Positions 5,073 to 29,135 of a stretch of 48,921 bases of DNA are shown one piece after another. Location: IMG/VR virus record IMGVR_UViG_2778261394_000010. One strand, 5' to 3'. The translations under genes were made by a program, and so were the position numbers. The DNA comes from a virus. Its lineage: Duplodnaviria; Heunggongvirae; Uroviricota; Caudoviricetes. The notes beneath the pieces are model-generated. The model was not told where the DNA came from. It did no database searches and saw only the letters and a program-made list of their open reading frames with translations. Positions within the stretch are counted from its first letter, which is position 1; each line of letters starts with the position of its first letter.

Positions 5073-7630
5073 CGTCCACCTCCGGAGAACAGGCCACCAT
5101 CACGCATCTGTGTCTGAATTTCATCACGGGCACCCTTGCGGGCCATGTCATACACCGCCTTCAGAGCAGCCGGACCTATCTGCCCGTTCGTGCCGTCGTT
5201 GTTAATCACCACATGGTTATTCTGCTCAAACGTCCCGGACGCCTGCGACCGGCTGTCTGCCATGCTGCCCGGTGTACCGACATAACCGCCGGTGGCATAG
5301 CCGCGCATCAGCCGGTAAAGATTCCCCACGCCAATCCGGCTGGTTGCCTCCTTCGTGAAGACAAACTCACCACGGTGAACAATCCCCGCTGGCTCATATT
5401 TGCCGCCGGTTCCCGTAAATCCTCCGGTTGCAAAATGGAATTTCGCCGCAGCGGCCTGAATGGCTGTACCGCCTGACGCGGATGCGCCGCCACCAACAGC
5501 ACCGCCAATGGCGCTGCCGATACTCCCGACAATCCCCACCATTGCCTGCTTAAGCAGAATTTCTGTCATCATGGACAGCACGGAACGGGTGAAGCTGCGC
5601 CAGTTCTGCTCACTGCCGGTCAGCATCGCCGCCATATTCTGTGCAATACCATCAAAGGTCTGCGTGGCTGCACTTTTTACCTGCGACATACTGTCCGTGG
5701 CGCTCTCTTCCCACTCACTCCAGCCGGACTTCAGGCCTGCCATCCAGCTCCCGCGAAGCTGGTCTTCAGCCGCCCAGGTCTTTTTCTGCTCTGACATGAC
5801 GTTATTCAGCGCCAGCGGATTATCGCCATACTGTTCCTTCAGGCGCTGTTCCGTGGCTTCCCGTTCTGCCTGCCGGTCAGTCAGCCCCCGGCTTTTCGCA
5901 TCAATGGCGGCCCGTTTTGCCCGTTGCTGCTGTGCGAATTTATCCGCCTGCTGCGCCAGCGCGTTCAGGCGCTCCTGATACGTAACCTTGTCGCCAAGTG
6001 CAGCCAGCTGGCGTTTGTACTCCAGCGTCTCATCTTTATGCGCCAGCAGGGATTTCTCCTGTGCAGACAGCTGGCGACGTTGCGCCGCCTCCTCCAGTAC
6101 CGCGAACTGACTCTCCGCCTTCCACAAATCCCGGCGCTGCTGGCTGATTTTCTCATTTGCTCCGGCATGCTTCTCCAGCGTCCGGAGTTCTGCCTGAAGC
6201 GTCAGCAGGGCAGCATGAGCACTGTCTTCCTGACGATCGCCCGCAGACACCTTCACGCCGGACTGTTTCGGCTTTTTCAGCGTCGCTTCATAATCCTTTT
6301 TCGCCGCCGCCATCAGCGTGTTGTAATCCGCCTGCAGGATTTTCCCGTCTTTCAGTGCCTTGTTCAGTTCTTCCTGACGGGCGGTATATTTCTCCAGCGG
6401 CGTCTGCAGCCGTTCGTAAGCCTTCTGCGCCTCTTCGGTATATTTCAGCCGTGACGCTTCGGTATCGCTCTGCTGCTGCGCATTTTTGTCCTGTTGAGTC
6501 TGCTGCTCAGCCTTCTTTCGGGCGGCTTCAAGCGCAAGACGGGCCTTTTCACGATCATCCCAGTAACGCGCCCGCGCTTCATCGTTAACAAAATAATCAT
6601 CCTTGCGCAGATTCCAGATGTCGTCTGCTTTCTTAAACGCAGCCTCTGCCTTAATCAGCATCTCCTGCGCGGTATCAGGACGACCAATATCCAGCACCGC
6701 ATCCCACATGGATTTGAATGCCCGCGCAGTCCTGTCTGCCCAGGTCTCCAGCGTGCCCATGTTCTCTTTCAGGCGGCGGGTCTGGTCATCAAACCCTTTC
6801 GTTGCGGCCTCGTTCGCCGCCTGCAATGCCCCGGCTTCATCGCCGGAACGCTGCAACTGAGCAACATACGCAATCTGCTCCGCCGTCACGTTATGGAACT
6901 GGCGTGCCATCACCGTCAGCCCCGACGTCGGGTCTGTGGTCAGCTTCCCGAAGGCTTCAGCGACCTTGTCCACCTCCACGCCGGATGCAGAGGAGAAACG
7001 CGCCACACTCTGGCTGATGGACGCAATCTGAGCCTCACCGCTTACCCCCGCCTTAACCAGTGCGCTGAGTGACTCGCTGGTCTGGTTAAACGTCAGCCCT
7101 GCCGCCTGCCCGGCTCTGGACAAGACCAGCATACGATCTGCCGTCAGTCCCGCCTGATTGCCGGAAAGGACCAGCGTTTTGTTGAAATCGGACAGGGTTG
7201 AGTTGCCCTGATACCAGGCATACGCCAGCGCACCGGTCGCCACCGCCAGCGAGGTGGCCCCCACCATCGGCAGGGTGATCGCACCGGCAAGCCCCCTGAA
7301 CATGGGGATCATCCCGCCGAAGGAGTCCTTCACCTGCCCCCCCTGTTGCAGCAGGATCAGCCACGGACTTTGCCCGCCTGCAAGCTGCGTGGCCACGTCG
7401 GTGAACTGTGCAGGCAGCATACGCATGCCGGCTTTATACTGCCCGACGGAAATCCCCGCTTTCTGTGCAGCCAGCGCCTGTCGGCTCAGCGACTGTTCAA
7501 CGACTGCCGCTGTTTTTTTCGCATCACTTTCCGTACCGAAAAAATGACGCCTGACTCTGGCCATCTGCTCGTCAAATCTGGCCGCATCCAGACTCAAATC
7601 AACGACCAGATCGCCTACCGGTTCAGCCAT
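5069..7630 (-). CDS. H: Tail tape measure protein H
   Basis: 853-aa ORF, coiled-coil rich, with the glycine-rich segment GGAVGGGASASGGTA; same length and position as lambda gpH. Confidence 0.95.
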   Translation of the reverse strand: MAEPVGDLVVDLSLDAARFDEQMARVRRHFFGTESDAKKTAAVVEQSLSRQALAAQKAGISVGQYKAGMRMLPAQFTDVATQLAGGQSPWLILLQQGGQVKDSFGGMIPMFRGLAGAITLPMVGATSLAVATGALAYAWYQGNSTLSDFNKTLVLSGNQAGLTADRMLVLSRAGQAAGLTFNQTSESLSALVKAGVSGEAQIASISQSVARFSSASGVEVDKVAEAFGKLTTDPTSGLTVMARQFHNVTAEQIAYVAQLQRSGDEAGALQAANEAATKGFDDQTRRLKENMGTLETWADRTARAFKSMWDAVLDIGRPDTAQEMLIKAEAAFKKADDIWNLRKDDYFVNDEARARYWDDREKARLALEAARKKAEQQTQQDKNAQQQSDTEASRLKYTEEAQKAYERLQTPLEKYTARQEELNKALKDGKILQADYNTLMAAAKKDYEATLKKPKQSGVKVSAGDRQEDSAHAALLTLQAELRTLEKHAGANEKISQQRRDLWKAESQFAVLEEAAQRRQLSAQEKSLLAHKDETLEYKRQLAALGDKVTYQERLNALAQQADKFAQQQRAKRAAIDAKSRGLTDRQAEREATEQRLKEQYGDNPLALNNVMSEQKKTWAAEDQLRGSWMAGLKSGWSEWEESATDSMSQVKSAATQTFDGIAQNMAAMLTGSEQNWRSFTRSVLSMMTEILLKQAMVGIVGSIGSAIGGAVGGGASASGGTAIQAAAAKFHFATGGFTGTGGKYEPAGIVHRGEFVFTKEATSRIGVGNLYRLMRGYATGGYVGTPGSMADSRSQASGTFEQNNHVVINNDGTNGQIGPAALKAVYDMARKGARDEIQTQMRDGGLFSGGGR

Positions 7631-10970: not shown

Positions 10971-11011
10971 GGACTCCTCCACAGAGAAACAATGGCCCCG
11001 AAGGGCCATGA

Positions 11012-11802
11012 TTACGCCAGTTGTACGGACACGAACTCATCAGGGTCAGCCAGCAGCATCAGCGGTGCTGACTGAATCATGGTGAACTCACGCGCCGGAT
11101 CGCCGGTGGTCACCCAGTTTTTCGGGTAACGGGCAGAGGCGTTAATGCCTTCGCGCTGTGCGTCCGCATCCTGAATGCAGCCATAGGTGCGCAGACCGCG
11201 TGCCTGAGTGTTCCCCAGCACCATCGTGTTGTCCGGCAGGAAGTTCTTTTTGACGCCGTTTTCCACGTACTGTCCGGAATACACGACGATGGCCACATCG
11301 CCATACATCCCCTTATAGGACACCGCTTTACCTAGGTCTTTCACCGCTGTCTCCAGCTCGGAATTAGAGCCACGACGGGTATCCAGCTTTTCCTTGACGG
11401 CTTTGAAGGAACGGAACAGCGCCCAGCCTTTCGGATCAAACACGATGATATTCACCACACCGCTGGCGTTCAGCGCGTAGGCTTCGATATCGTCGGTCGG
11501 GTCATACGTGGACTTGTCACGCTTGCTCCACTCCGTGCCGCCGGACTGCGTGATGTTATTCTCCTCACTGCGGCCCATATCCACCTCAACCGGATCGAAG
11601 GCTTCACCGGTCATGGTGTATTTGCCCTTAAGCACGGCAGAAACTGCCTGCATCTCTTCGACCTGAGCAATGGCCAGCTCTTCGTCACGCATGTTCTGCA
11701 TGATGATGCGACGGCGGCGGTAAGCCGGGTCCGCCAGATTCTGCGGATCTTCATCCGGCAGGCGACGCAGGGTCATCTGCGGATTCACTTCATGCTTCGG
11801 CT
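11012..11802 (-). pseudogene. E: Major capsid protein E, 3' fragment (codons ~83-341), separated from its 5' part by the inserted element
   Basis: Frame reads …PKHEVNPQMTLRRLPDEDPQNLADP… to the normal E C-terminus (…DEFVSVQLA); an in-frame TAG immediately upstream at 11801-11803 marks the insertion junction. Confidence 0.9.
11793..11802. repeat. Left junction core of inserted element (TGCTTCGGCT; rc AGCCGAAGCA)
   Basis: Identical 10-mer recurs at 22723..22732; E-derived sequence is continuous across the two copies once the intervening 10.9 kb is removed. Confidence 0.85.
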
Positions 11803-11874
11803 ACATGAGTCAAATATGAAAGGAACTGAATGATTTTTAATGAAATAAATGGCTCTCTCTATCAAAATACAGCT

Positions 11875-11900
11875 AAAAAGCAATACACGTAGCAATACAG
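11875..11900. repeat. 26-bp terminal direct repeat, left copy (aaaaagcaatacacgtagcaatacag)
   Basis: Near-identical copy (aaaaagcaatacaagctgcaatacag) at 22570..22595 just inside the right junction; contains tandem GCAATACA half-sites. Confidence 0.6.
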
Positions 11901-11929
11901 CGCTTCGCAAAGGTATGTCACTATATCTA

Positions 11930-12865
11930 CTAGTGCCAACCAGAATACGAATATCTTTGCTTTGCTTCTTCTGGGCTCATACCCACTAGTAAAGATACTA
12001 ATTCAAAGTCAGGTTGTGGAATTGGAATCAATGCAGCCAAATATGCTGGCTTATTGAGAACAATTGTTGATAATTTAGCTTTATTCACCTTAGATAACTC
12101 AATATTACTTTCCGCCACCTTCGGGAACTCCATAATAAATGAATTAATTTCCCTTATGAGATAATCGATCAACGCCACTATACTTTCTGTCAAATCAATA
12201 TATTTTGACAACTCACTAGCACCAATTTCTTTCTTTATTTCATCCAATTTAATTTCAAACACTGGCTTGTCTTTACTGGCAATATTAGACAAACGTTTCT
12301 TTAAATCTGAATCAAGCTGATTCCTGACAATTAAACTTTTCAAAACAAAATTATAATTAAACAAAAAAGCATCAATTCGAGCAATATTCCTCCATGAGTT
12401 TCCAATTTCTTCATCTGACGGCATAATAAGTTCATGTTTTAGTATCTTGTACTTAATAAAAAAAACAAACCTCTCAAATAGAGATTTATTAGCTGTGGGT
12501 ATCTTTTTTATAAATGAAAGACGGCTAATATCGTAATTCACCTCCCCGGCGTTAAATAAAAATTCATTTATTGCCAGCGCTCTTAATATCGGATTTCTAG
12601 ATCTCAAACCAATATAACTACTTTTAATTCCCACAAGTGTATTTATCATCTGAAAAGAAACCATCATAAGCGTATTAGCAGAATTAAATTTCTCCGTTTC
12701 TATTTTAATCTTCTCTTGCCTATTATTGATGTAATAAGCAGTTAAGCCTCCCATAAGCGCCGATAAAAAAGATAATGCAATAGGGAATACATAATCTTTT
12801 GTATAATCAACATCTGCTTTCAACATTAGTATTGCTTTAGCAATCAAAACTGCATCAGGGGTCAT
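11930..12865 (-). CDS. Hypothetical protein, AT-rich cargo gene with a predicted N-terminal transmembrane segment
   Basis: Long ORF with low-GC codon usage unlike its neighbours; hydrophobic stretch YVFPIALSFLSALMGGLTAYYI; no recognisable motif. ATG at 12865 preferred over the TTG at 12895 used by the ORF track. Confidence 0.5.
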   Translation of the reverse strand: MTPDAVLIAKAILMLKADVDYTKDYVFPIALSFLSALMGGLTAYYINNRQEKIKIETEKFNSANTLMMVSFQMINTLVGIKSSYIGLRSRNPILRALAINEFLFNAGEVNYDISRLSFIKKIPTANKSLFERFVFFIKYKILKHELIMPSDEEIGNSWRNIARIDAFLFNYNFVLKSLIVRNQLDSDLKKRLSNIASKDKPVFEIKLDEIKKEIGASELSKYIDLTESIVALIDYLIREINSFIMEFPKVAESNIELSKVNKAKLSTIVLNKPAYLAALIPIPQPDFELVSLLVGMSPEEAKQRYSYSGWH

Positions 12866-13565
12866 GTTAGAGCCGTCATTAAAAATTAAACACAATACCC
12901 ATAAAATATAACAGCTTATTGTTTAGAAAAGCAATATCATACACTCTATGATAAGCGTAATATCTGACAGGCATGGTGTGTTACGACACTTAATTAAACG
13001 TAATTTGCTAAAATTTTACACACAGAATCACACCTGGCTCTAACTCTCCTTTCATTACAATTGTAAGCATACAATTATCCTACCAGAACTTTATTGTTGA
13101 GCTCTCCCTTTTGAGCCCATCCCATAATGAATTGACGAAAGAACCGTATCTGTGGAGTAATCATTTCTGCGCGGTTCTATGTCGAAGACAAAATGTGGTA
13201 TGCGCATCTAGTCAGAGGGAAAGCAATTTTTCAGGGAAATATCATCTCTACATGGTTAAGACAACCAGAAGAAGTTATCAAGCAAGTTGGGTATGAAGAT
13301 TTTCCTATAATAGTAACGAAACGGGTTTCACCTGAGCGGTTGTGTTCGATCCGCCACAATACGCATAGGATGCCCTGTAATCCGTATTCTGCTTACTCAA
13401 CAGCTTACCAGCAGGACTCGTAAGGCTGTTGCGATAGTGCAGAAGTAGGCCACGACCATAAAGTGAAGCCAGTGGCGCGTTATCGACTACTTTAGTGTAG
13501 AGCCTGATTTCAACGCAAGCATGAGAGTTTTTTCTGGCGATAGGCCGTGACAAACAGCAACAAAA

Positions 13566-13766
13566 TCAGAGAAAGGAAACGGCAGAGGCCAAAAAGCCCG
13601 TTTTCAGCGCCTGTCATTTCCTTTCTTTTCAGAGGGTATTTTAAATAAAAACATAAAGTTACGGCGAAGAAGAACGGAAACGCCTTAAACCGGAAAATTT
13701 CCATAAATAGAGAAAAACTGCGCGCCTGACGCCCCGTAGCCTGTCAGATCGCCGGAAAGGACCCGC
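13566..13766. other. cos-like site of the inserted element, homologous to the helper cos region but with a diverged cosN 12-mer
   Basis: About 200 bp aligns without gaps to helper 28935..29133 (most positions identical by eye); the cosN position reads cgcctgacgccc (13723..13734) against helper aggtcgtcgccc. Confidence 0.8.
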
Positions 13767-13790
13767 CAGCCAGAGCGGGCCCTAATTTCA

Positions 13791-14174
13791 TCAACCAATC
13801 AGCTTATAGCGACCATCCCGTGCATTGCGGCGTACACGCTCAATCTTGAGGCATAGCGCCGCATCTGGCTTTTTTGGGACAGGTACGCGGCAATATTCAG
13901 AAGCGCGAGGAATATTATTTATCCAGTCGATCACTTCACTTAAATACCAGGCCTTACGCCCTTCCGTAACCTGCACACGCTCCGGGAACTCTCCACTAGC
14001 CTCAAGGTTTAGCAGTGTACGCCGACTCAGGGTTGTAATTTCCATCACCTGATTCATATCAACAAGGCGCTCGCTTAAACACATTTTGTCAGCGATAGCT
14101 TTTAATTCCTCTACAGCTGGATTCGGGTACATCATTTCGGCAATTGGCTTAAGGTCATTGTAATCATTCTGCAT
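13791..14174 (-). CDS. HTH protein with an AlpA/MerR-like C-terminal half, function unknown (regulator or packaging-specificity factor)
   Basis: 127-aa ORF; segment EITTLSRRTLLNLEASGEFPERVQVTEGRKAWYLSEVIDWI resembles AlpA-family HTH; strong SD AAGGGGG; immediately downstream of the D-like gene and upstream of the cos-like site. Confidence 0.55.
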   Translation of the reverse strand: MQNDYNDLKPIAEMMYPNPAVEELKAIADKMCLSERLVDMNQVMEITTLSRRTLLNLEASGEFPERVQVTEGRKAWYLSEVIDWINNIPRASEYCRVPVPKKPDAALCLKIERVRRNARDGRYKLIG

Positions 14175-14185
14175 TGTATCCCCCT

Positions 14186-14527
14186 TTACACACGAGCCAG
14201 CGGCTGAACAGAAATACCTGAGCCAACAAACGCGGCAACCTTTGCCGACAGTTCTCTTACAGACTCAGGCCAGTTCAGAGCATCAACATTTAAAACACCT
14301 GTCTTATAAACCTGTGCCTGTGTTTTTTTCGCTGTGTCGATTTGTACAGCGGAAACATAAACCGCTTTGCCTGCGCTCGTTCCATCCCATACCACTAGCG
14401 CACCAGTTGCATCTTCCTGCATCAGTGGCGTAAACGCAGGTATTACCCCTTTATTGGCTGAAAATATCCCCAGCGTAGTAACCAGTGCTTCAGTGCCAGA
14501 CATGAGTTCAGTGTAATGAGTAGCCAT
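14186..14527 (-). CDS. Head decoration protein, diverged gpD homolog carried by the element
   Basis: 113 aa; …AFTPLMQEDATGALVVWDGTSAGKAVYVSAVQ… parallels lambda gpD …[35 protein letters not shown]…; strong SD AAGGGGGAG. Confidence 0.7.
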   Translation of the reverse strand: MATHYTELMSGTEALVTTLGIFSANKGVIPAFTPLMQEDATGALVVWDGTSAGKAVYVSAVQIDTAKKTQAQVYKTGVLNVDALNWPESVRELSAKVAAFVGSGISVQPLARV

Positions 14528-14536
14528 TGCTCCCCC

Positions 14537-15577
14537 TTAGCCAATGCGAACGGTAACAAAACGATTGATGCGGGCCGGTATTGGCTGTGGTGCTGAATGT
14601 GTCTGCACATATTCAATAGCCGGATCACCAGGCACAATATAGTTTTTCGGTGCAAGTTCGGCTTTAGTCAGCCCCATTCGGATTAGCTCCGGATCCTGAA
14701 TACCGCCATAGGCGACAATCCCCTGAAGAGCCGTATTGCCAAGCACCATCAAATCAGGATCAAGGAAATGTTTTTCAGTTCCGTCCTCGTCGGTATAACG
14801 CCCGCTGTATACAACAATCGCAACATCGCCCATATACCCTTTAAAACTCACCGAATCACCAAGGTCTTTAAGGGCCGTTTCCAGTTCGGAATTAGAACCA
14901 CGACGGGTATCCAGAGCCTCTTTTATCGCTCTGAATGAACGGTATTTCTTCCATACATTACCGCCCATAATGATGATATTAGTGACGCCCTCACTAAATT
15001 CTGCGTAGCTCTCAATATCATCATTTGGATCAAAAGTTTCTTTATCCTTACCTGACCACTCAGCACCGCCAGACTGAGTGATGATATTTTGTGGTTTAAT
15101 ATTCCAGTCCAGCTCATAACGTTCAATACCATCGCCCTCAATGATATTTTTCCCCGTTGTGATTGCCTGAACGGCAAGCCATTCAATACGTGCACGAATA
15201 GCTTTAGCCTGATTTACAATCGCCTGTTTAACTTTAATATTACGCGCTCCAAAAGCATTGTATTGCTCAGGTGATACACCAGCAGGGCGCACAGCTAACT
15301 TATTTGGATCAATGCTGCTTTTCGGCTTCATATAGCCTGGACGAATTGTTTTTGATTCGTACCCTTCGTCACGTGAAACTTTACTACCCACCATAGGAGA
15401 ACAAAACGCTGCAATTGGGATATTTGGATCGTCGATTGTATCAAGAATAATATCGCGCGATTCAAACATTACCGAGCGAGTAAAAAACAAACTGGTAAAC
15501 AACGCATTTAGTTGTTTTTGTACATCTACAGCATTAACCACCTGTACAAGCTGGGTAGGCGAATATAAATCAACCAT
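14537..15577 (-). CDS. Major capsid protein, diverged gpE homolog carried by the element
   Basis: 346 aa from ATG at 15577 (SD AAGAGGA); shares ITQSGG.EWS, TRRGSNSELET and GDVAIVVYSG motifs with lambda gpE but is clearly diverged; earlier in-frame starts at 15583 and 15598 are possible. Confidence 0.85.
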   Translation of the reverse strand: MVDLYSPTQLVQVVNAVDVQKQLNALFTSLFFTRSVMFESRDIILDTIDDPNIPIAAFCSPMVGSKVSRDEGYESKTIRPGYMKPKSSIDPNKLAVRPAGVSPEQYNAFGARNIKVKQAIVNQAKAIRARIEWLAVQAITTGKNIIEGDGIERYELDWNIKPQNIITQSGGAEWSGKDKETFDPNDDIESYAEFSEGVTNIIIMGGNVWKKYRSFRAIKEALDTRRGSNSELETALKDLGDSVSFKGYMGDVAIVVYSGRYTDEDGTEKHFLDPDLMVLGNTALQGIVAYGGIQDPELIRMGLTKAELAPKNYIVPGDPAIEYVQTHSAPQPIPARINRFVTVRIG

Positions 15578-15749
15578 ACGCATCCTCTTTGCATTCATTA
15601 AAAATAATTGTGGATATATGCTATCACCGATATTTGTCATGCGAATACATGCAACCGAGTGCAATGTTGTATAAAGTTTTGGGATGACAACTTCAGCACG
15701 GATAATTAGTGTTAATATCTTCACTCCCTTTGGTCTGGATTTATGTAGC

Positions 15750-15790
15750 ATGCCGGAAAATTTATTTTTTTTCCGGCCTTTTTTATTGGC
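15750..15790 (+). terminator. Hairpin with flanking T-tract (gccggaaaa…ttttccggc + ttttttatt)
   Basis: 9-bp perfect stem followed by a T-run on the plus strand, between the SSB and capsid genes; may act in either direction given the flanking A/T tracts. Confidence 0.4.
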
Positions 15791-15795
15791 AATAT

Positions 15796-16245
15796 TTAAA
15801 ACGGAATATCATCTCCCCATTGCTCATTATCTCCCACTGGTGGATGGCTTCCTTGCTGATCTGCCTGTTGTTTTGCTCTGTTCAGTGCGTCAGTAGCCTG
15901 ACCCTGTTGATCTTTTTTGCCGCCCGGTCGCACCGTTCGCGCACTGATTACGCTGTCTGCGATAACCTGCCAGCCCTGCCGCGTTTCACCGTTCTGTCCA
16001 GTCCACTGGCTCACCTGCATATTACCCGCCACGCTCAGGAGTTCGCCTTTGTGATGCTTTGCCAGCGTGTCGGCTTGTCTGCCAAACGCCAGCACAGATA
16101 ACCACATCGTCGCCGTTCCGTCATCTGCCTGGCTGCATGGCAAAGATACCGCCATCCGTGCCAGTGTCATGGGTGTTCCCTTGCTGGTATGTTTTACCTG
16201 TGGGTCGTCCACCAGCCGCCCGTAAGCTGCTATTTGCGCCGTCAT
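15796..16245 (-). CDS. ssb: Single-stranded DNA-binding protein
   Basis: 149 aa with Gly/Gln-rich linker and acidic C-terminal tail ending DDIPF, the SSB hallmark. Confidence 0.85.
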   Translation of the reverse strand: MTAQIAAYGRLVDDPQVKHTSKGTPMTLARMAVSLPCSQADDGTATMWLSVLAFGRQADTLAKHHKGELLSVAGNMQVSQWTGQNGETRQGWQVIADSVISARTVRPGGKKDQQGQATDALNRAKQQADQQGSHPPVGDNEQWGDDIPF

Positions 16246-16256
16246 GCTGCCTGCTC

Positions 16257-16499
16257 TCAGGACTTAATATTGATGGTTGTCACTTCCTCCGCTTCGGCAA
16301 TCTCCCGTTCGGTCAGCGTGGCAAAGTTTGCAGCCGCCGTTGTCATGAATGCGCTTATCAGTTCGGGATGTGCTTTCGCGTATCCTTCCCCGGCGTTGCG
16401 GTCTATTGCCTTAATCGCCACCCTTAGCCAGTGTTCAGCCATATCAAGGGCGCGGTAATGTGGCTTTATATGTTTGTTCAGTTTTCCTGATGTGTGCAT
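16257..16499 (-). CDS. Hypothetical protein
   Basis: 80-aa ORF between the iteron origin and ssb, co-oriented with the replication operon; no motif recognised. Confidence 0.4.
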   Translation of the reverse strand: MHTSGKLNKHIKPHYRALDMAEHWLRVAIKAIDRNAGEGYAKAHPELISAFMTTAAANFATLTEREIAEAEEVTTINIKS

Positions 16500-16546
16500 T
16501 TTTATTTTTACCCCCTCGTTTAAAAAGTTTTTTGTGCACCACCACC

Positions 16547-16777
16547 TTGTCTACCTTGTCTACCTGATTAGTTATCAGGCCAGTAATGGCGCGGGTTTCA
16601 GGGAGGTAGACAGCCCCAAATAGCTGTCTACCTCATCTCTACCCGTCTCCTTACCTGTCTACAAAAATGGGTAGATAAGGTAGATAACAGGTAGACAGTG
16701 AAAAATAGTTATCTACCTGCATTAATACATTGAAATAAAAGCATTTTATTTCAGTCAGGTAGACAAGGTAGATAACC
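16547..16777. repeat. Iteron cluster, putative replication origin of the element
   Basis: At least 12 copies of GGTAGAYA / TRTCTACC in both orientations, some tandem (ggtagataaggtagataacaggtagacag), with AT-rich spacers, immediately downstream of the primase-helicase gene. Confidence 0.7.
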
Positions 16778-16788
16778 ATTGCCATTTT

Positions 16789-18540
16789 TTATAAAAACGC
16801 ATCGCAATCATCAGTAGTCGTTGCGTTGGTCTGCGTGACTCCCTTAACTTTTCGCGTAATATATTCATATCCGTAAACTTTCGCCGCTGACCTCATAGCC
16901 TTTCCGAACTCATTCACGCTCAAACATTTCCCCTTTCCTGTATATGCCATGAAGGCCATATAGACACGGTAAAGGCTGTTTCTGGTCGTGTACTTCACGG
17001 TGTCACCACCACCGCCCATCATTAGCCCACGAGCTTCCTCCAGAAACTCCAGCGCCGCGCAAAGCTCAACAACCGGATCCGTTTGCTGCTTTATTGCCAG
17101 AGCTTCATCACCGTCACGCTGTTCCAGTAATAAAGCCCGTGCCTTTTCAGGGTCAGCAAAATTAGCCAGCAAGCGGCGGATAATTACGGGGATTTCTGCC
17201 GCTATCTTTTCCGGTAATTCCTTGTCTTTTTCGTCCTCCCTTACAATGTTGTCGAACCGGAAAATCACCCGACGGCGTGACACACCTCCGGCCCGTTCGG
17301 TAAAGATCATCGGGTCGTTATTGGTTGCCAGTACCACCGCCCTTATTATCGTCGTGAATCGCTTCTCATATTTCGGGTTAATTTCAACGGGATCGCCTCC
17401 CGTGATTTTCTTGATGCCCGTGCCTTCCCCCGTATATTTCGGCTGATCGGCAAGGACGATAAGACGACTCCCGACAACCTGCGCACGCCCTCCTGCATCA
17501 TCGAGTGATGTCATCTCTGCGCTTACGGTGTTCTGTTTGCCAGCAAGCAGGGTGGCAATATGGGTAAATGTACTCTTACCGCTTCCCCCGTCTCCGGTGG
17601 CCTCAATGAACATCTGCCAGTCGTACCGGTTCGCCATAATCATGTACAGCGCGGCACATATACGCATCATCTTGCGCGGGTCTTTTCCGGCTGCGTGCTC
17701 AAGCCATTTATGAAAGTTTGGCGCGTTATCGCGGATGTTCTCCCCTGGTGCTGGTGGCGTGTACTCAATGCCGTTGTGCGTGGTGATCCAGTTCTCCGGC
17801 GTGTGCGGGGAAAATTCCCCCGTTTTCAGGTCAAGCGCACCATTGGCGAACGGCAGCAAATCGCCGGACGGCTCGCCCATTGGTTCGGCAATAACTTTTA
17901 ACGCTTCAACGGCGTTATTGATCACGCGTTTGCTGAAAGTGGCCCTGTGCTCTGAATAGATCGCCACCATTTCGCGGCTCAGCTCCATTGTGCTGATCGG
18001 ACACCATACCCCGCCGCGCCATACGTGAACGATTTCACTTTCCGGATGCACACAAACGCCATCAAAGCGCTCGGCAAGCAGCTGCGCGCGCTCACTGTCT
18101 GCCATCTGTGAAAGTTGCGCCTTTTGCTTCGTCGGAAGATTAAGCACCAGGCTTTCCCCACGCTCGCATTCCTCTTTGAGTCGCGGCAACTGGTCGGATA
18201 AATCCACTGGGCTGGTGTCAGTAATCCCCGCGTATTCGTGTACGGTCTTCACTCCAGCCACAGCCAGTAACGTAACAATCTGCGTCATGCTGTGCTCTGT
18301 GATATGTCCTGCGCGGTAAACACGCACACACTGACGATCTTCATCAATGATCCGGTAATCGGTGATGTTTTTCAGTTGCTCATCAGCCAACACGACAGGC
18401 GGCACATCGTCGGCGGCAATATGTTTACCCGCCCATTCCTGCCACTCTTTCGCATGGCTCCACGCATCACTACCTGCAAAGATGATTATCTCTGTCAGTC
18501 TGTCGCGTGGCTGTTTTTTTAAGTTCGGTGCCAGTTTCAT
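16789..18540 (-). CDS. Primase-helicase replication protein (P4-alpha / D5-like, SF3 helicase)
   Basis: 583 aa; Walker A GDGGSGKST followed by a D5_N/SF3-like region (…IVLADQPKYTGEG…LATNNDP…); adjacent to the iteron origin. Confidence 0.85.
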   Translation of the reverse strand: MKLAPNLKKQPRDRLTEIIIFAGSDAWSHAKEWQEWAGKHIAADDVPPVVLADEQLKNITDYRIIDEDRQCVRVYRAGHITEHSMTQIVTLLAVAGVKTVHEYAGITDTSPVDLSDQLPRLKEECERGESLVLNLPTKQKAQLSQMADSERAQLLAERFDGVCVHPESEIVHVWRGGVWCPISTMELSREMVAIYSEHRATFSKRVINNAVEALKVIAEPMGEPSGDLLPFANGALDLKTGEFSPHTPENWITTHNGIEYTPPAPGENIRDNAPNFHKWLEHAAGKDPRKMMRICAALYMIMANRYDWQMFIEATGDGGSGKSTFTHIATLLAGKQNTVSAEMTSLDDAGGRAQVVGSRLIVLADQPKYTGEGTGIKKITGGDPVEINPKYEKRFTTIIRAVVLATNNDPMIFTERAGGVSRRRVIFRFDNIVREDEKDKELPEKIAAEIPVIIRRLLANFADPEKARALLLEQRDGDEALAIKQQTDPVVELCAALEFLEEARGLMMGGGGDTVKYTTRNSLYRVYMAFMAYTGKGKCLSVNEFGKAMRSAAKVYGYEYITRKVKGVTQTNATTTDDCDAFL

Positions 18541-18836
18541 TTTTTGCCCCTGAATGCGTTAATCATGCTTTTCATTTTCTGGATGTTTCCCCGCGCTTTT
18601 TCCCTGCTGATGGGCTTACTGCGGGGTGCGGCATATACCAGGGAAAAATCACGCCGGAACTGATAAACAGGCATCACGCAGTCATAGCTATACCCCTCAC
18701 GACGGTAAGTGATGCGCCGTTCTGCCACGCCTTTAATCGTTACCGTGCCGCCGTATTTATCGCGGTAAATATCGCCGTTCATAAATTCAGGCCGAGCGGG
18801 GCCGCTGGCAATAAAGCCAGAATTTTTCATTTCCAT
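18537..18836 (-). CDS. Hypothetical protein
   Basis: 99-aa ORF whose stop overlaps the primase-helicase start (4-nt overlap), suggesting translational coupling. Confidence 0.4.
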   Translation of the reverse strand: MEMKNSGFIASGPARPEFMNGDIYRDKYGGTVTIKGVAERRITYRREGYSYDCVMPVYQFRRDFSLVYAAPRSKPISREKARGNIQKMKSMINAFRGKK

Positions 18837-18853
18837 ATTATTTATTCCTCGAC

Positions 18854-19075
18854 TTAACTCGACTTATTTGATAGCAGGGCACTATTTATTGCGTCATTGA
18901 GTTTTTCTGCTGCTTCATCAATAAGTGACAACAGGCCATAAGCAATATTTGCATCTTCATTGTCATTTATGCAATCAAGCCACATATTTAATATTGCTTT
19001 TGCTGAATTATTTAAAGTTAATGAACTTTCTGCACATGCTAACAATTTAAAAAAGACTTCCCGTTCTGTATTCAT
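18854..19075 (-). CDS. Hypothetical small protein (AT-rich)
   Basis: 73-aa ORF in the same operon; low GC. Confidence 0.3.
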   Translation of the reverse strand: MNTEREVFFKLLACAESSLTLNNSAKAILNMWLDCINDNEDANIAYGLLSLIDEAAEKLNDAINSALLSNKSS

Positions 19076-19267
19076 TTAATCCCCCACCAGCTTACTTTCT
19101 TCCTCAATCAAAAAACTAGCGACACTTCCCGAAAGACGCGCCAGTAGGCTCGCCAGTGCGGATATATCAGCATCTGTAATTTTGTTCGGGTATACCTCAA
19201 GAAGGCGGCAAATAATTTCTGTCTGGTGCGCACGTTCAGCGGCTTCGTGTAATGTGATTTCCTGCAT
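19076..19267 (-). CDS. Hypothetical small protein
   Basis: 63-aa ORF tightly packed between neighbours. Confidence 0.3.
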   Translation of the reverse strand: MQEITLHEAAERAHQTEIICRLLEVYPNKITDADISALASLLARLSGSVASFLIEEESKLVGD

Positions 19268-19452
19268 TAATGCACCTCTTTTAATTCATACACTGCTGAA
19301 ATAATGACTTGTGATAAGCCATATTCTGATGATTCGCTTCTCACCGCAGCAATAGCCGTCTGAACATTAACAGCCTTCACATTCTGAGCGATACCAATTG
19401 TGTGGCCTATTGGGTTAACAGCTCGGGCAAATACACGGAAGGTTTTAAGCAT
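19267..19452 (-). CDS. Hypothetical small protein, first gene of the element's leftward operon
   Basis: 61-aa ORF directly downstream of the divergent control region. Confidence 0.3.
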   Translation of the reverse strand: MLKTFRVFARAVNPIGHTIGIAQNVKAVNVQTAIAAVRSESSEYGLSQVIISAVYELKEVH

Positions 19453-19832
19453 GACTCACTCCCTGGCGGATTTTTGCAGCGAATACAGCAACACAACCGG
19501 ACGGGCAACGGCTACGCGCTTCGCGTTCCGTCCAGGCGGTTACGTGGATGATTTGAGATTCTCCGGCACTCAGTGCCAGAAAACGCCACACAAAGGCCGT
19601 TTGTGTGTGTACAAGGTGTGGTATATGATTTACAGCAACCATAACGGCTCCTAGTTTACGTTGTTGGTTAGACGCCCCGTATGTGTTCCCAGCACTGCGG
19701 GGCGTTGCTCTTTGTATTTCAACAATCCTTTCGGTGTGTTTCATGTTATGAGCGCATGAAACACACGTCAAGGCTTTTTGTATTTCTTTTTTTGTGTATA
19801 CTGAAACACACCGATGATTAGGAGTTTCAGAA

Positions 19833-20138
19833 ATGGCAACGGCTAACAAAAACGCAAAATCACAACTGACAACTGTCAGAGTCCCACTAGATGTTATGCA
19901 AGGGATGGAATCCGTTAAGCTGGACGGTGAAAGCAATGCCGGATTTATCGTAACCGCCATGCGCGGTGAAATCGCCCGCCGCCAGGCAGAAGGAAGCGGA
20001 GAAAATCCCCTCGTGTCTTCACTGGATACCTTAGCTAAGGTCGAACAAATCGGCATCAAGGCAGCGGAGGAAATCGGGCAACTCGTAGCCGTCGCTCGTG
20101 AAGAACTCCAGCGGCGTAAAGCCAAAGAATCTGAATAA
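19833..20138 (+). CDS. Putative regulator of the element, fold not assigned
   Basis: 101-aa ORF with strong SD AGGAG, transcribed divergently from the replication/capsid operon across a structured intergenic region. Confidence 0.4.
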   Translation: MATANKNAKSQLTTVRVPLDVMQGMESVKLDGESNAGFIVTAMRGEIARRQAEGSGENPLVSSLDTLAKVEQIGIKAAEEIGQLVAVAREELQRRKAKESE

Positions 20139-20488
20139 TTAGTATCAGCGCCGTGATGTGAGTAACTACGGCGCATTGCTATGTAAATACTGGCAATAAA
20201 CAGAAAAGGTAGTTCTACTCCGAATAATTTTATCTGACACTACTCCTGAACTAACATGCGCTTATCTTACAGGATATAAATATAAATCCATAAAATCACG
20301 ATTAAATAAAGTCGCTCCAAACATAAACCACACCCAACGCTTAACAAGATAGCAACAAACAGGTAAATAACTTGCAGAAATATTTATCGCAAGGATTATC
20401 ATTATTAATGACAAATCACTTTACCAAGTCATTCCCCTCTCTTATCATAAAGAGAAAGTAATAAATAAGTTAAGGGAGTTAGAATGCT

Positions 20489-21025
20489 ATGAATCTAAAA
20501 AAAATAGCCACAAACACAAAAAACAAGATAACAGAAACATTTAATAAACTTATATTAGAGGCATCTAAAACCCCCACACAAGATGAAATTAAAATACTTG
20601 AGAGAAGGAGTAAGAAGTTTAATTACTCCTTTTTCTCATACGCAGTCACAGGAGCTATAATAGTTTTTTGCTCTCAACCATTAATTAAATACGCAAACCC
20701 AATACTTATTTTATTGAGTGGTCTGTTACTGTCTATCATCATTATCATTCTCAGAATGATTTATATTTCACAAGCGAATGCATCATGGACAACCAAAAAA
20801 CGCTCACATGTACTAGTTCATTTTCTTTCTGCATGTTTCATAGCATCAACATTGACGTTGCTATATCAGGCTTACGATAATAACATCACACACAAATTGT
20901 ACTGTAAAAATATACAACAACTTATTGAAAAAAGGATAGAAACAGAAAAAAACATCAGCATATTCAGTGGGATGCAATGCACCCCGGTATATGATTACTC
21001 TTTATTTGGATTTAATCTCTTATAA
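20489..21025 (+). CDS. Hypothetical membrane protein, AT-rich cargo gene
   Basis: 178 aa with hydrophobic segments (AVTGAIIVFCSQPLI, ILILLSGLLLSIIIIIL); very low GC; followed by a perfect 13-bp inverted repeat. Confidence 0.5.
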   Translation: MNLKKIATNTKNKITETFNKLILEASKTPTQDEIKILERRSKKFNYSFFSYAVTGAIIVFCSQPLIKYANPILILLSGLLLSIIIIILRMIYISQANASWTTKKRSHVLVHFLSACFIASTLTLLYQAYDNNITHKLYCKNIQQLIEKRIETEKNISIFSGMQCTPVYDYSLFGFNLL

Positions 21026-21034
21026 AGAATGTTA

Positions 21035-21068
21035 TTACTGATTTGAGTACAAATTCTCAAATCAGTAA
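21035..21068. terminator. Perfect 13-bp inverted repeat (ttactgatttgag / ctcaaatcagtaa), probable bidirectional terminator
   Basis: Lies between the convergent cargo gene (+) and the AlpA gene (-), flanked by A/T runs. Confidence 0.5.
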
Positions 21069-21094
21069 TTCATAATATTTTATTCTGAGATAAT

Positions 21095-21331
21095 TTAAAC
21101 TACCCACTCACCTCGAATCCATGCCTGCACTTCTGAAAGACGATATGCAACAGCAGTGGAACCAATCTTGATCCGCTTAGGAAATTTTCCTTCCTTCTCC
21201 AGCTTCCAGCGTGTGCTGTTCGCAAGAGTGGTTAGCTCCCGACATTCTTTCTCACGGATCATTCGGTCAATGTTAGGAATGTACTCCAGACCCTTTTTAT
21301 CAACAATTGCCATTTTTTTCATGTTAACCAA
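21095..21331 (-). CDS. alpA: AlpA-family HTH regulator / excisionase-like protein
   Basis: 78 aa; ELTTLANSTRWKLEKEGKFPKRIKIGSTAVAYRLSEVQAWI fits the AlpA/Xis HTH_17 pattern; immediately downstream of the integrase. Confidence 0.75.
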   Translation of the reverse strand: MVNMKKMAIVDKKGLEYIPNIDRMIREKECRELTTLANSTRWKLEKEGKFPKRIKIGSTAVAYRLSEVQAWIRGEWVV

Positions 21332-22559
21332 CCTTTTGTTTGAGGATTGTCACTTTTGAATCAGCACCTGCGATGCTATTGAGATATGTAGTCCAGAGTT
21401 CCAGAGCATCCAGTTTTTTAGCCATAAACTTACTCCGGTTGTAAACACCTGCCACGCCAGGTAGCGCATGGCCTAACAGTTGTTCTACTACATAAAATTC
21501 AACACCGAGATCACTTAGATGAGTAGATAGCGTTCTTCTAAGGTCGTGTAGTGACCATTGTTTTTCATGGCCCAAACGTTTACCGATTTTCCCCCCAATC
21601 TTGCTTACGCTTTCTCTAATTCGCAGACTTCCCAGCACATAACCAGTATGTTTTGTCTCTTCGTGAACATCCGTTACCCACTGTCGTAGAATTTCAGGTA
21701 CTGGTCTGACGATTTCAACACCAGTTTTTGAGTGATCTTTTGGTACAGTCCAAACCCAACTTTCGAGATCCCATTCGCTCCATTCTGATAATCGGGCTTC
21801 ACTCATTCGACATCCAAATACTGTACAAAGCACAAACATTTTTCGCGTGTATTCAGACATTAGTTTTAAATCAGGCTCGACAAAAATTGCCTTCCAGAGC
21901 TGGCCGAGTTCGGCTTCATCCAGAACCCGATCCCGCTTACCTGCAATCTGCCCCACATCACTCATGCGCAAATCCTTTAAAGCATCACACGTCGCGTACT
22001 GGCGTACCCGACAAAAACGAAGAGCTAATTTAGTGTCAGAAAAAACATACGCCGCCATAACTGGTGCATTACGTTTAATTCGGTCAAAACAGTCCAGCCA
22101 TTCATATAGGTGAGTGTCATTTACGGGCAAATGACCGATATAGGGAAAGATATGCTTTCGAAATCTGCCAAGCGTTACAGCATGAGTTTTACGACGCACC
22201 TTACAGTAATTTTCATACCAGTAATTTAGTGCATCCTCCACTGTAACCGGCTTTAAGCGTTCTTCAGCCTGAATCTTAATCTGGATACGCGGATCACGTT
22301 TGTCAGCCAACCAACCACGGCACTCGTCGCGCTTTTCCCTTGCCTGTTTGAGTGACATATCAGGATATTTACCCAACGTTAGCCAGACCGGAGCAGCCCG
22401 GCCACCTGCTAACCTGTAGAAGAAAACAAAGCTCACAGCCCCTTTAGTACTCACACGAATAGAAAGCCCCTTTCCATCAGCAATGGTGATCTGCTTTTCT
22501 CTGGGTTTCCCCAGATATCCTTTAAGCGCTTTGTCGCTCAGTTTGTTCTCGCCAGCCAT
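21324..22559 (-). CDS. int: Tyrosine integrase (P4-type) of the inserted element
   Basis: ATG at 22559 gives MAGENKLSDKALKGYLG…; C-terminal catalytic region with …HDLRRTLSTHLSDLGV…LLGHA…; about 160 bp from the right junction core. Confidence 0.9.
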   Translation of the reverse strand: MAGENKLSDKALKGYLGKPREKQITIADGKGLSIRVSTKGAVSFVFFYRLAGGRAAPVWLTLGKYPDMSLKQAREKRDECRGWLADKRDPRIQIKIQAEERLKPVTVEDALNYWYENYCKVRRKTHAVTLGRFRKHIFPYIGHLPVNDTHLYEWLDCFDRIKRNAPVMAAYVFSDTKLALRFCRVRQYATCDALKDLRMSDVGQIAGKRDRVLDEAELGQLWKAIFVEPDLKLMSEYTRKMFVLCTVFGCRMSEARLSEWSEWDLESWVWTVPKDHSKTGVEIVRPVPEILRQWVTDVHEETKHTGYVLGSLRIRESVSKIGGKIGKRLGHEKQWSLHDLRRTLSTHLSDLGVEFYVVEQLLGHALPGVAGVYNRSKFMAKKLDALELWTTYLNSIAGADSKVTILKQKVG

Positions 22560-22569
22560 TTTTAGCCCC

Positions 22570-22595
22570 AAAAAGCAATACAAGCTGCAATACAG
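22570..22595. repeat. 26-bp terminal direct repeat, right copy
   Basis: aaaaagcaatacaagctgcaatacag, matching the left copy at 11875..11900 at 24 of 26 positions by eye. Confidence 0.6.
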
Positions 22596-22722
22596 AGATG
22601 ATTGCAACACACAGATAACGAGGAAAATTCAGTGAAAGCACCAGATAAACTTATTCTTTATTATCAAAAGATTAAGTGTAAAAACCAGCAACTACACGAA
22701 AGCCTCAGAAAGCCATGCTAAG

Positions 22723-22732
22723 TGCTTCGGCT
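22723..22732. repeat. Right junction core of inserted element (TGCTTCGGCT)
   Basis: Second copy of the 10-mer; on the minus strand E reads …GTC AAG CCG AAG CAC and then diverges into element sequence (LAWLSEAFV stop). Confidence 0.85.
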
Positions 22733-22967
22733 TGACGTATCCCGGCGTAAATTCAGAGGTGGAGCCGCCACGGGAACGGATAACCTCACCGGAAACAATC
22801 GGCGAAACGTACAGCGCCATGTTTACCAGTCCCGGAATTTGTGAGAGATAGACTTTCTCCGTGGTGAAGGGATAGCTCTCACGGAAAAAGAGACGCAGAA
22901 ACAGCGGATCAAACTTAAATTTCTGCTCATTTGCCGCCAGCAGTTGGGCGGTTGTGTACATCGACAT
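22723..22967 (-). pseudogene. E: Major capsid protein E, 5' fragment (codons 1-82)
   Basis: ATG at 22967 gives MSMYTTAQLLAANEQKFKFDPLFLRLFFRESYPFTTEKVYLSQIPGLVNMALYVSPIVSGEVIRSRGGSTSEFTPGYVKPKH, the lambda gpE N-terminus, then runs into the element. Confidence 0.9.
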
Positions 22968-23022
22968 AAAAAAATCCCGTAAAAAAAGCCGCACAGGCGG
23001 CCTTTAGTGATGAAGGGTCAGG

Positions 23023-23355
23023 TTAAACGATGCTGATTGCCGTTCCGGCAAACGCGGTCCGTTTTTTCGTCTCGTCGCTGGCAGCCTCCGGCCAGAGCAC
23101 ATCCTCATAACGGAACGTGCCGGACTTGTAGAACGTCAGCGTGGTGCTGGTCTGGTCAGCAGCAACCGCAAGAATGCCAACGGCAGCACCGTCGGTGGTG
23201 CCATCCCACGCAACCAGCTTACGGCTGGAGGTGTCCAGCATCAGCGGGGTCATTGCAGGCGCTTTCGCACTCAATCCGCCGGGCGCGGTTGCGGTATGAG
23301 CCGGGTCACTGTTGCCCTGCGGCTGGTAATGGGTAAAGGTTTCTTTGCTCGTCAT
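23023..23355 (-). CDS. D: Head decoration protein D
   Basis: [52 protein letters not shown]…, 110 aa, lambda gpD. Confidence 0.92.
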
Positions 23356-23364
23356 AAACATCCC

Positions 23365-23970
23365 TTACACTGGTGTGTTCAGCAAATCGTTAACGGCATC
23401 AGATGCCGGGTTACCTGCAGCCAGCGGTGCCGGTGCCCCCTGCATCAGACGATCCAGCGCAGTGTCACTGCGCGCCTGTGCACTCTGTGGTGCTGCGGCC
23501 AGAATGCGGCGGGCCGTTTTCACGGTCATACCGGGGGTTTCTGCCAGCACGCGTGCCTGTTCTTCGCGTCCGTGAGCCTCCTCACAGTTGAGGATCCCCA
23601 TAATGCGGCTGTTTTCTGCCGCAACCGCTGCGGTGATCTGCGCGTTCACGTCCGGCTGCGCCGCGCTGGCGTTCTCGCCCTCCGTCGCTGGCACCACGTC
23701 AGTAACGTCAGCCTGCGAAGCAGTGGCTGAAACAGTTGTTGATTGAGTCTCTTTGGTCATTCGCCCTCCTGAGAGACGGGATTTACGTGCATCCAGTGCA
23801 TCACGCATGACGGTGATCGCATCGGTGCTGTTAACAAGTTCATCAGCCAGTCCGGCATCAATGGCCTCCTGACCGCTGTACACTGCAGCCTCGGTATCCA
23901 GCACAGCCTGCACGGACAGGCCGGTATATGCCGACACCTTCTGCGCAAACATCTGGCGGGTTGCGTCCAT
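23365..23970 (-). CDS. Nu3: Scaffolding protein Nu3 (in-frame internal start within C)
   Basis: ATG at 23968-23970 (MDATRQMFAQKV…) at the position expected for lambda Nu3, sharing the C reading frame and stop. Confidence 0.7.
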   Translation of the reverse strand: MDATRQMFAQKVSAYTGLSVQAVLDTEAAVYSGQEAIDAGLADELVNSTDAITVMRDALDARKSRLSGGRMTKETQSTTVSATASQADVTDVVPATEGENASAAQPDVNAQITAAVAAENSRIMGILNCEEAHGREEQARVLAETPGMTVKTARRILAAAPQSAQARSDTALDRLMQGAPAPLAAGNPASDAVNDLLNTPV

Positions 23971-28911: not shown

Positions 28912-29135
28912 TGTTCATTCCACGGCCAAAAACAGAGAAAGGAAACGACAAAGGCCCAAAAGTTCGTTTTCAGCACCTGTCGTTTCCTTTCTTTTCAGGG
29001 GGTATTTTAAATAAAAACATTAAGTTACGACGAAGAAGAACGGAAACGCCTTAAACCGGAAAATTTTCATAAATAGCGAAAACCCGCGAGGTCGTCGCCC
29101 CGTAACCTGTCGGATCGCCGGAAAGGACCCGCAAA
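28912..29135. other. Helper phage cos region (cosB - cosN - cosQ); cosN 12-mer at 29089..29100
   Basis: Sequence is the reverse complement of the remembered lambda genome ends; cosN reads aggtcgtcgccc, one position different from lambda aggtcgccgccc; the Nu1 start abuts the cosB side. Confidence 0.85.

Follow-up and report, generated by a model that had tools for sequence, protein, structure and literature searches.

A capsid and decoration protein pair of satellite type in a helper-embedded island within gene E of a lambda-type prophage

Phage-inducible chromosomal islands (PICIs) that are embedded in their helper prophage (HE-PICIs) have been described at a site within the capsid gene E, designated E:Phage_cap_E:80 (Tommasini, Mageeney & Williams, bioRxiv 2022; NAR Genom Bioinform 2023, PMC10111431). 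At this site 201 instances were counted, and it was shown that the composite is excised and replicates, and that the satellite is then precisely excised (PMC10111431). For the prototype 11capE only excision and replication have been published, while the supplement contains members of E_Phage_cap_E_80 that have the identity block 'agccgaagca' and helpers at tRNA-Arg (PMC10111431). A capsid gene followed by a decoration gene, c1499 and c1500, was noted in 2018 in the PICI EcCICFT073 (Fillol-Salom et al., PMC6092414). Deletion of c1499 or c1500 neither restored lambda plaques nor changed the transfer of the island, and all the DNA that was packaged had the size of phage DNA (PMC6092414). In 2019 each of the post-ori (late) genes of EcCICFT073 was expressed alone, and only c1503, encoding RppA, blocked lambda (PMC6739421). 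A literature search revealed no later paper assigning a function to a capsid/decoration pair of the EcCICFT073 type. Here we describe such a pair, encoded by a 10.93-kb element that interrupts gene E of a lambda-type prophage in a DNA stretch of 48,921 nucleotides (virus record IMGVR_UViG_2778261394_000010; the whole stretch is called the window below).

The two genes are almost certainly the 'late-zone' genes of an HE-PICI of group E:Phage_cap_E:80, which has its own integrase and uses a 10-bp core in a lambda-type E. Both the HE-PICI arrangement and the capsid-decoration pair are already known. What is added here is that the pair belongs to a lineage found only in satellites, that the order E then D is fixed, that the ratios of nonsynonymous to synonymous substitution rates (dN/dS) are low, and that the pair is independent of the integration site.

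The split gene E and the capsid-decoration pair

The window is a lambda-type prophage lying on the minus strand, with an 11-kb block inside gene E; the features given below are on the minus strand unless (+) is stated. The helper genes are found in the order tail genes, FI, split E, D, C/Nu3, B, W, A, Nu1, cos, early region and right-end integrase, and in the stretch from 11.8 to 22.7 kb the GC content drops to about 0.44, from about 0.58. Two copies of a 10-bp attachment (att) core, AGCCGAAGCA on the minus strand, flank the block, one at the junction with the C-terminal fragment of E (11793-11802) and one at the junction with the N-terminal fragment (22723-22732). In 3,207 E. coli genomes, homology to E of the lambda type starts exactly at position 22723. 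According to the translation, the N-terminal fragment (22692-22967) comprises codons 1-82, with the core at codons 79-82, and the reading frame then enters a tail of nine codons belonging to the element before it meets a stop codon. A late transcript of the embedded island would accordingly encode a truncated gpE consisting of residues 1-82 followed by LAWLSEAFV. The C-terminal fragment (11012-11802) was assigned by comparison with lambda gpE. When the fragments are rejoined at the core they encode 341 amino acids, all of which are identical to lambda gpE, and the helper D gene (23023-23355) is intact, with 110 of 110 residues identical to lambda gpD. The element therefore disrupts E only, and not also D as stated in the preliminary description, and precise excision of the 10,930-bp circle would restore a wild-type capsid gene. 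Satellites embedded in the capsid gene of their helper represent an unusual cis form of parasitism, which is seen in about 3% of complete E. coli genomes (the E::int junction in 173 of 5,426); at least 80% of the present element is found in 47 complete E. coli genomes.

The larger of the two genes (14537-15577) encodes a major capsid protein of 346 amino acids with the HK97 fold, here called E-like, which belongs to the satellite type of Phage_cap_E. It matches Pfam Phage_cap_E over profile positions 4-327 of 329 (E=1.4e-41, 143.1 bits, cut-off 22.9), and in BLASTP it is 42% identical over its full length to the reconstructed helper E, that is lambda gpE (E=3e-86). Among proteins of known structure it matches the lambda major capsid protein 7VI9 (2.3e-76) and 3BQW (2.6e-121), and the latter, the top structural match, is c1499 of EcCICFT073, to which E-like is 55% identical. 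An AlphaFold model (pLDDT 80, pTM 0.81) gives template modelling (TM) scores of 0.89 to 3BQW and 0.82-0.86 to the lambda major capsid protein structures 7VI9 and 7SJ5. The start giving 346 amino acids is supported by the alignment with the N-terminus of gpE and by a Shine-Dalgarno sequence, AAGAGGA, 6 nt upstream of the ATG. The identity to gpE is 15-35% in residues 1-150 and 50-90% in residues 160-270, and the two proteins have the central motif DTRRGSNSELET...GDVAIVVYSG in common.

The smaller gene (14186-14527) encodes a head decoration (cement) protein of 113 amino acids, here called D-like. It matches Pfam HDPD (E=4.6e-15, 56.2 bits, cut-off 29.1), is 40% identical to helper D and lambda gpD over 78 amino acids (E=2e-17), and finds SHP (1TD0, 3e-16) and lambda gpD (about 2e-12) among the PDB entries. 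The AlphaFold model of the monomer (pLDDT 84) resembles both 1TD0 (phage 21 SHP) and 1C5E (gpD), with TM scores of 0.81-0.91 and root mean square deviations of 1.3-2.0 Å. The identity to c1500 is 54%. The N-terminus of D-like cannot be aligned to gpD; an N-terminal motif and the C-terminal extension SVQPLA are conserved among the satellites and specific to them.

That the two proteins are diverged homologs of gpE and gpD, as had been proposed from the sequence, is thus borne out by profile searches (1.4e-41 and 4.6e-15) as well as by structure prediction (TM scores of 0.8-0.9). The blocks that were quoted for E-like, TRRGSNSELET and GDVAIVVYSG, are indeed shared with gpE, but in the E family as a whole, satellites as well as phages, no part is better conserved. 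The gene order, E before D, is also as described and the reverse of that in lambda (D 5747-6079, E 6135-7160), and the pair provides the only head genes of the 11-kb element, which is integrative but no phage: portal, protease, terminase, tail and lysis genes were looked for among its open reading frames (ORFs) and none was found, nor does the RefSeq annotation of near-identical copies include a portal, a protease, head-tail connectors or a terminase.

The D-like gene starts 9 nt past the stop codon of the E-like gene and has the Shine-Dalgarno sequence GGGGGAG. Strong Shine-Dalgarno sequences and spacers of 9-11 nt make the pair a tight operon, and for both genes the unsaturated comparisons gave a dN/dS of 0.06-0.09, which indicates strong purifying selection. 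Because of these properties the genes are taken to be functional. A terminator between the replication genes and the pair was considered and rejected; there is a hairpin at 15752-15777, but on the coding strand it lacks a U-run. In the lambda capsid gpD binds through its N-terminus. The divergence from lambda is concentrated in the parts that meet in that capsid, and this would fit a co-adapted pair.

When it comes to distribution, the pair constitutes a satellite-only lineage rather than a recent copy of the helper genes. In 50,697 phage records no E, and likewise no D, exceeds 42% identity to its counterpart in the pair. A large protein database contains 45 clusters of satellite type, which are at least 50% identical to E-like and, with one chimera excepted, at most 47% identical to helper E; the genera represented are Escherichia, Salmonella, Cedecea, Scandinavium, Serratia, Edwardsiella and Lelliottia. 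After these clusters the identity falls abruptly to 47% or less, the level of phage-type E, and after clustering the satellite-type and phage-type proteins separate cleanly. The exception, P0044, is a chimera of lambda E and E-like. All ten genomic contexts examined are satellites with the order E then D, while the phage-type genes have the order D then E. Besides the window these contexts are EcCICFT073, E. coli PICIs in the cspD/clpS region and at tRNA-Pro, four PICIs at fis (in Serratia, Lelliottia and two further contigs), an Edwardsiella HE-PICI and a Salmonella element. Chromosomally located PICIs (EcCICFT073 and those at fis, at tRNA-Pro and in the cspD/clpS region) thus have the pair, and the Edwardsiella tarda HE-PICI (L006 1786-11394) splits the portal gene of its helper, which has its own D and E intact downstream. 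Since this element has an E-like and a D-like gene but lacks one for a portal, the pair is not tailored to the interrupted gene. Recent capture or gene conversion from the helper was considered and discarded; the block shared with lambda E is conserved throughout the family, including the E of the Edwardsiella helper, and the element and its helper have only this block and cos in common. Neither was any co-variation seen between a satellite E and the E of its own helper (46% vs 44%).

The absence of a phenotype when the EcCICFT073 homologs are deleted (PMC6092414) might suggest that the pair are decaying passenger genes without any current function. This is very hard to reconcile with the dN/dS values, the strong Shine-Dalgarno sequences, the confident models and the intact ORFs in all ten contexts from at least seven genera, and it is considered highly improbable.

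A few relatives deserve mention. The Salmonella satellite (L012 4292-13978) has its E-like, D-like and AlpA-like module inside a P2-type tail gene cluster, flanked by the genes of the tail fibre and of the tail tube, and a helper of P2 type would not use a gpE-type capsid. In some of the fis PICIs (L008 10001-12752 and L016 9001-13078) the E-like and D-like genes are followed by one for an S49 protease/scaffold, and in L016 there is a small terminase of Nu1 type as well; such additions are steps toward a more complete head module encoded by the satellite. P0146, an E. coli protein of 194 amino acids with the annotation terminase small subunit, is a Phage_Nu1 domain fused to the C-terminal 73% of the D-like protein, with 100% identity in this part. 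Finally, a metagenomic contig (L011 2801-3829; ENA ERZ28600228 scaffold_2787) carries helper B, C and D, a chimeric capsid gene, a D-like gene and the gene of a winged-helix protein. The chimera joins residues 1-230 of lambda E to residues 231-342 of E-like, with the crossover in an exact run of 17 nt within the conserved DTRRGSNSELET block, and could be either a real recombinant or an assembly join.

Possible roles of the pair

The satellite has a cos site of 206 bp (13561-13766) with 89% identity to the helper sequence at 28927-29132, just upstream of Nu1. Helper-type cosQ and cosB repeats are kept, while the 12-nt cohesive-end core of cosN differs, being GGGCGTCAGGCG in the satellite and GGGCGACGACCT in the helper, so that annealing between an end of the satellite and one of the helper would not be expected. 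The retained cosB suggests that the satellite might use the helper terminase directly. Packaging of the Rpp type, as in EcCICFT073, was rejected since RppA (144 aa) shows no similarity to the 127-aa winged-helix protein or to the other ORFs of the element, and since cosB-like sequence is retained. The satellite genome corresponds to 22.5% of the lambda length, and three, four and five copies to 68%, 90% (43.7 kb) and 113%, respectively. Lambda packages 75-105% of its genome length, and its heads require gpD above about 82%.

The role regarded as most likely, although put forward tentatively, is that the pair forms a matched shell-plus-cement module, which is used on the portal, protease and scaffold of the helper. 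The two genes would have been inherited as a matched set within satellites and not recently copied from the helper. They would be expressed as a tight operon of the E-like, D-like and AlpA-like winged-helix genes, ending at the satellite cos, along with the rest of the one-directional island through its AlpA-driven transcription, and while the island is embedded probably also by read-through of the antiterminated late transcript of the helper. Using the portal, protease and scaffold of the helper, E-like would build heads of normal size, either by itself or in a mixture with gpE, and D-like would cement the E-like lattice. The helper terminase would then fill these heads from the satellite cos with about four copies of the genome, and at the resulting 90% of the lambda length gpD is needed by lambda heads. 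The benefit might be a supply of shell protein that is independent of helper E, including in the period before excision when E is split, while the pair would be dispensable in the laboratory with a wild-type lambda-like helper. For the explanation as a whole, comprising both the identity of the element and this mechanism, our confidence is evenly balanced.

Several points weigh against such a role. The deletion of c1499 or c1500, the pair 55% identical to the present one, changed neither transfer nor interference (PMC6092414), and if the role is structural it is therefore redundant with helper gpE and gpD under those conditions. It also has to be assumed that a shell protein with 42% identity to gpE works together with lambda Nu3, C and B, and the S49 protease/scaffold genes of some relatives may indicate that the helper scaffold is not ideal. 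The numbers of promoters and terminators predicted are those of shuffled sequence, and with no signal above chance the scan neither supports nor excludes read-through.

Redirection of the capsid size, one of the possibilities first raised, would mean that E-like acts in the same way as Ccm of SaPIbov5 and forces the formation of small heads, with room for one or two of the 10.9-kb genomes but not for the genome of the helper. The small size of the satellite relative to lambda fits this, as does rough arithmetic by volume scaling, where one copy takes up about 80% of a T=3 head, and there are precedents in the literature in SaPIbov5 Ccm, a capsid homolog, and in PmCI172, where a capsid homolog goes together with small heads. 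On the other hand, EcCICFT073, whose pair is 55% and 54% identical to the present one, packaged only phage-sized DNA (PMC6092414; restated in PMC6739421), and deletion of c1499 or c1500 did not relieve interference (PMC6092414). Four copies moreover fit a lambda head at 90% filling. Size redirection, contradicted for the EcCICFT073 pair, is thus regarded as unlikely.

A 'backup intact copy' of the capsid gene was suggested for the group, together with expression by read-through (PMC10111431), and complementation of the broken helper gene was also among the possibilities mentioned for the window. In its dedicated form this explanation holds that the pair was captured from a helper to replace the interrupted gene. 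It is true that E remains split until excision and that the element is co-oriented with the late operon, and in this respect the earlier idea of delivery by the late transcript is plausible. What does not hold is that the pair should be present because the element sits at E, as it is also found in PICIs that interrupt nothing phage-related and in the Edwardsiella HE-PICI, which splits a portal gene without carrying one. The closest phage copy is only 42% identical, the satellite E does not track the E of its own helper, and a D-like gene is present although D is not interrupted. Complementation is not needed either, since excision at the 10-bp core restores E exactly, in its lambda-identical form, and excision upon induction has been published. 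Its occurrence in satellites that leave E uninterrupted shows that the pair does not serve to mend a broken gene, and the satellite-only lineage, the purifying selection and the independence from the integration site together rule out the simple 'backup copy' idea. Dedicated replacement of the interrupted gene is accordingly held to be improbable.

Little probability is likewise given to interference, in which the pair would poison the assembly of helper heads or act as a decoy, titrating some factor of the helper or the host, for instance a defence that senses capsid protein. Interference is a common habit of satellites toward their helpers, and the diverged N-terminal half of E-like could make mixed lattices faulty. 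However, only c1503 (RppA) among the singly expressed post-ori genes of EcCICFT073 blocks lambda (PMC6739421), plaques were not restored by deleting c1499 or c1500 (PMC6092414), and no match to a defence family was found.

A variant of the shell-plus-cement module goes one step further. Here the pair is an old, satellite-private module that builds its own shell on a stolen helper portal, scaffold and tails, with the split E enforcing a capsid swap; this is thought unlikely. If it were true, the split helper E would ensure that the first heads formed after induction are of satellite type, and a shell belonging to the satellite might conceal the particles from a defence or a helper function that recognises gpE. 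Such a shell module would also be a half-way stage between the classical PICIs and the capsid-forming PICIs. Most Gram-negative PICIs keep a strongly conserved capsid-plus-cement pair, even though it is dispensable in knock-outs.

Other genes of the element and its helper

The element has the gene order integrase, AlpA, a small variable zone, a DUF4222 gene, primase, SSB, E-like, D-like, the winged-helix gene, the cos-like site and a cargo ORF, and its main genes are all co-oriented with the late operon of the helper. The integrase gene is terminal with alpA adjacent to it, a primase-type gene is present, the genes run in one direction and the size is within 10-20 kb, as is characteristic of Gram-negative PICIs, and the element is collinear with EcCICFT073 as this is arranged in the CFT073 genome. 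The features of a capsid-forming PICI, its own portal, protease, head-tail connectors and terminase, are lacking. The tyrosine integrase (21324-22610) has the Pfam domains Arm-DNA-bind_3 and Phage_integrase and is annotated as such in the RefSeq records of near-identical copies. It adjoins AlpA (21095-21331; Phage_AlpA, 3.1e-15), which is the excision and activator protein. Replication is represented by a primase/helicase (16789-18540) with D5_N, DUF5906 and Pox_D5 domains, and the single-stranded DNA-binding protein SSB (15796-16245; Pfam SSB, 3.4e-15) is encoded directly upstream of the capsid pair. The small variable zone includes an Icd-like gene and a YlcI/YnfO gene. Between alpA and the YlcI-like gene, the opposite strand carries a low-GC ORF of 178 amino acids (20489-21025, (+)), which has a hydrophobic-looking sequence and no match in Pfam, PHROG or PADLOC.

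The third gene of the E-like/D-like operon (13791-14174) encodes an AlpA-type winged-helix protein of 127 amino acids (Phage_AlpA, 7.6e-09; PDB 8C3T, 2e-09; phrog_2790, 1e-49), and its stop codon is 24 nt ahead of cos. The same trio, E then D then AlpA-like, recurs in satellites of Serratia (L004 11403-11756) and Salmonella (L012 11375-11812). As the gene occupies the place that is taken by other genes and RppA in EcCICFT073, its product may be a candidate for a cos-binding or late regulatory factor.

Between cos and att there is a cargo ORF of 321 amino acids with a GC content of 0.32 (11930-12895), which matches phrog_21267 only and nothing in Pfam or PADLOC. In near-identical satellites the same slot holds DUF262+HEPN or DUF2971 genes, which gives it the look of a variable hotspot for accessory or defence genes. 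For the cargo and accessory ORFs of the present element, a role in defence was dropped because they have no significant match in PADLOC. An Rfam scan of 11000-23400, covering regulatory RNAs of the C4/isrK type, gave no match at E <=0.1. The helper prophage has an integrase of intD type. It also contains a porin gene (32936-34033, (+); Porin_1, 1.8e-156), and in its early region (41717-43368, (+)) the gene of a HipA-like kinase is followed by a DUF3037 gene.

Comparison with known systems

The closest described system is the HE-PICI Eco567.11capE of group E:Phage_cap_E:80. The present element resembles it in the insertion at codons 79-82 of E, the 10-bp block, an element-side attL that is identical, and the gene order int, alpA, primase, SSB, capsid gene, cos. 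They differ in that the prototype is found in an icd prophage and has the core aacccaagca, while the present helper has an intD-type integrase. The block 'agccgaagca' of those members whose helpers are at tRNA-Arg is the one that is present here. The present element has a D-like gene, and a decoration gene is not mentioned in the main text of the paper on HE-PICIs (PMC10111431).

EcCICFT073 is likewise a Gram-negative PICI in which the pair, again with E before D, follows the replication module; the identities are 55% and 54% and the fold is the same. It is, however, chromosomal, located between roxA and phoQ, lacks the cosB of the helper and needs RppA, while the present element has kept a lambda-like cosB, has no Rpp homolog and has the AlpA-like winged-helix gene at that position. 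Compared with lambda gpE and gpD the proteins belong to the same Pfam families, have the same folds and retain the conserved central motif, but the identities are only 42% and 40%, the two genes stand in the opposite order, E has diverged in its N-terminal half and D at its N-terminus, and D-like has a C-terminal extension that gpD does not have.

Ccm of SaPIbov5, which makes small heads, is also a satellite-encoded homolog of the major capsid protein of the helper. Ccm is not known to have a partner decoration protein. Unlike Ccm, the EcCICFT073 homologs of the present pair gave no size redirection (PMC6092414). The capsid-forming PICI (cf-PICI) EcCIEDL933 has a PICI backbone that encodes its own capsid protein, but the cf-PICIs have, in addition, genes for portal, protease, connectors, HNH and both terminase subunits, whereas the present element encodes only shell and cement. 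In the case of P4, with Psu and Sid, a satellite likewise supplies its own protein for decorating or stabilising the head. P4 differs in using the capsid protein of the helper together with an external scaffold, and its proteins have no known homology to gpD or gpE.

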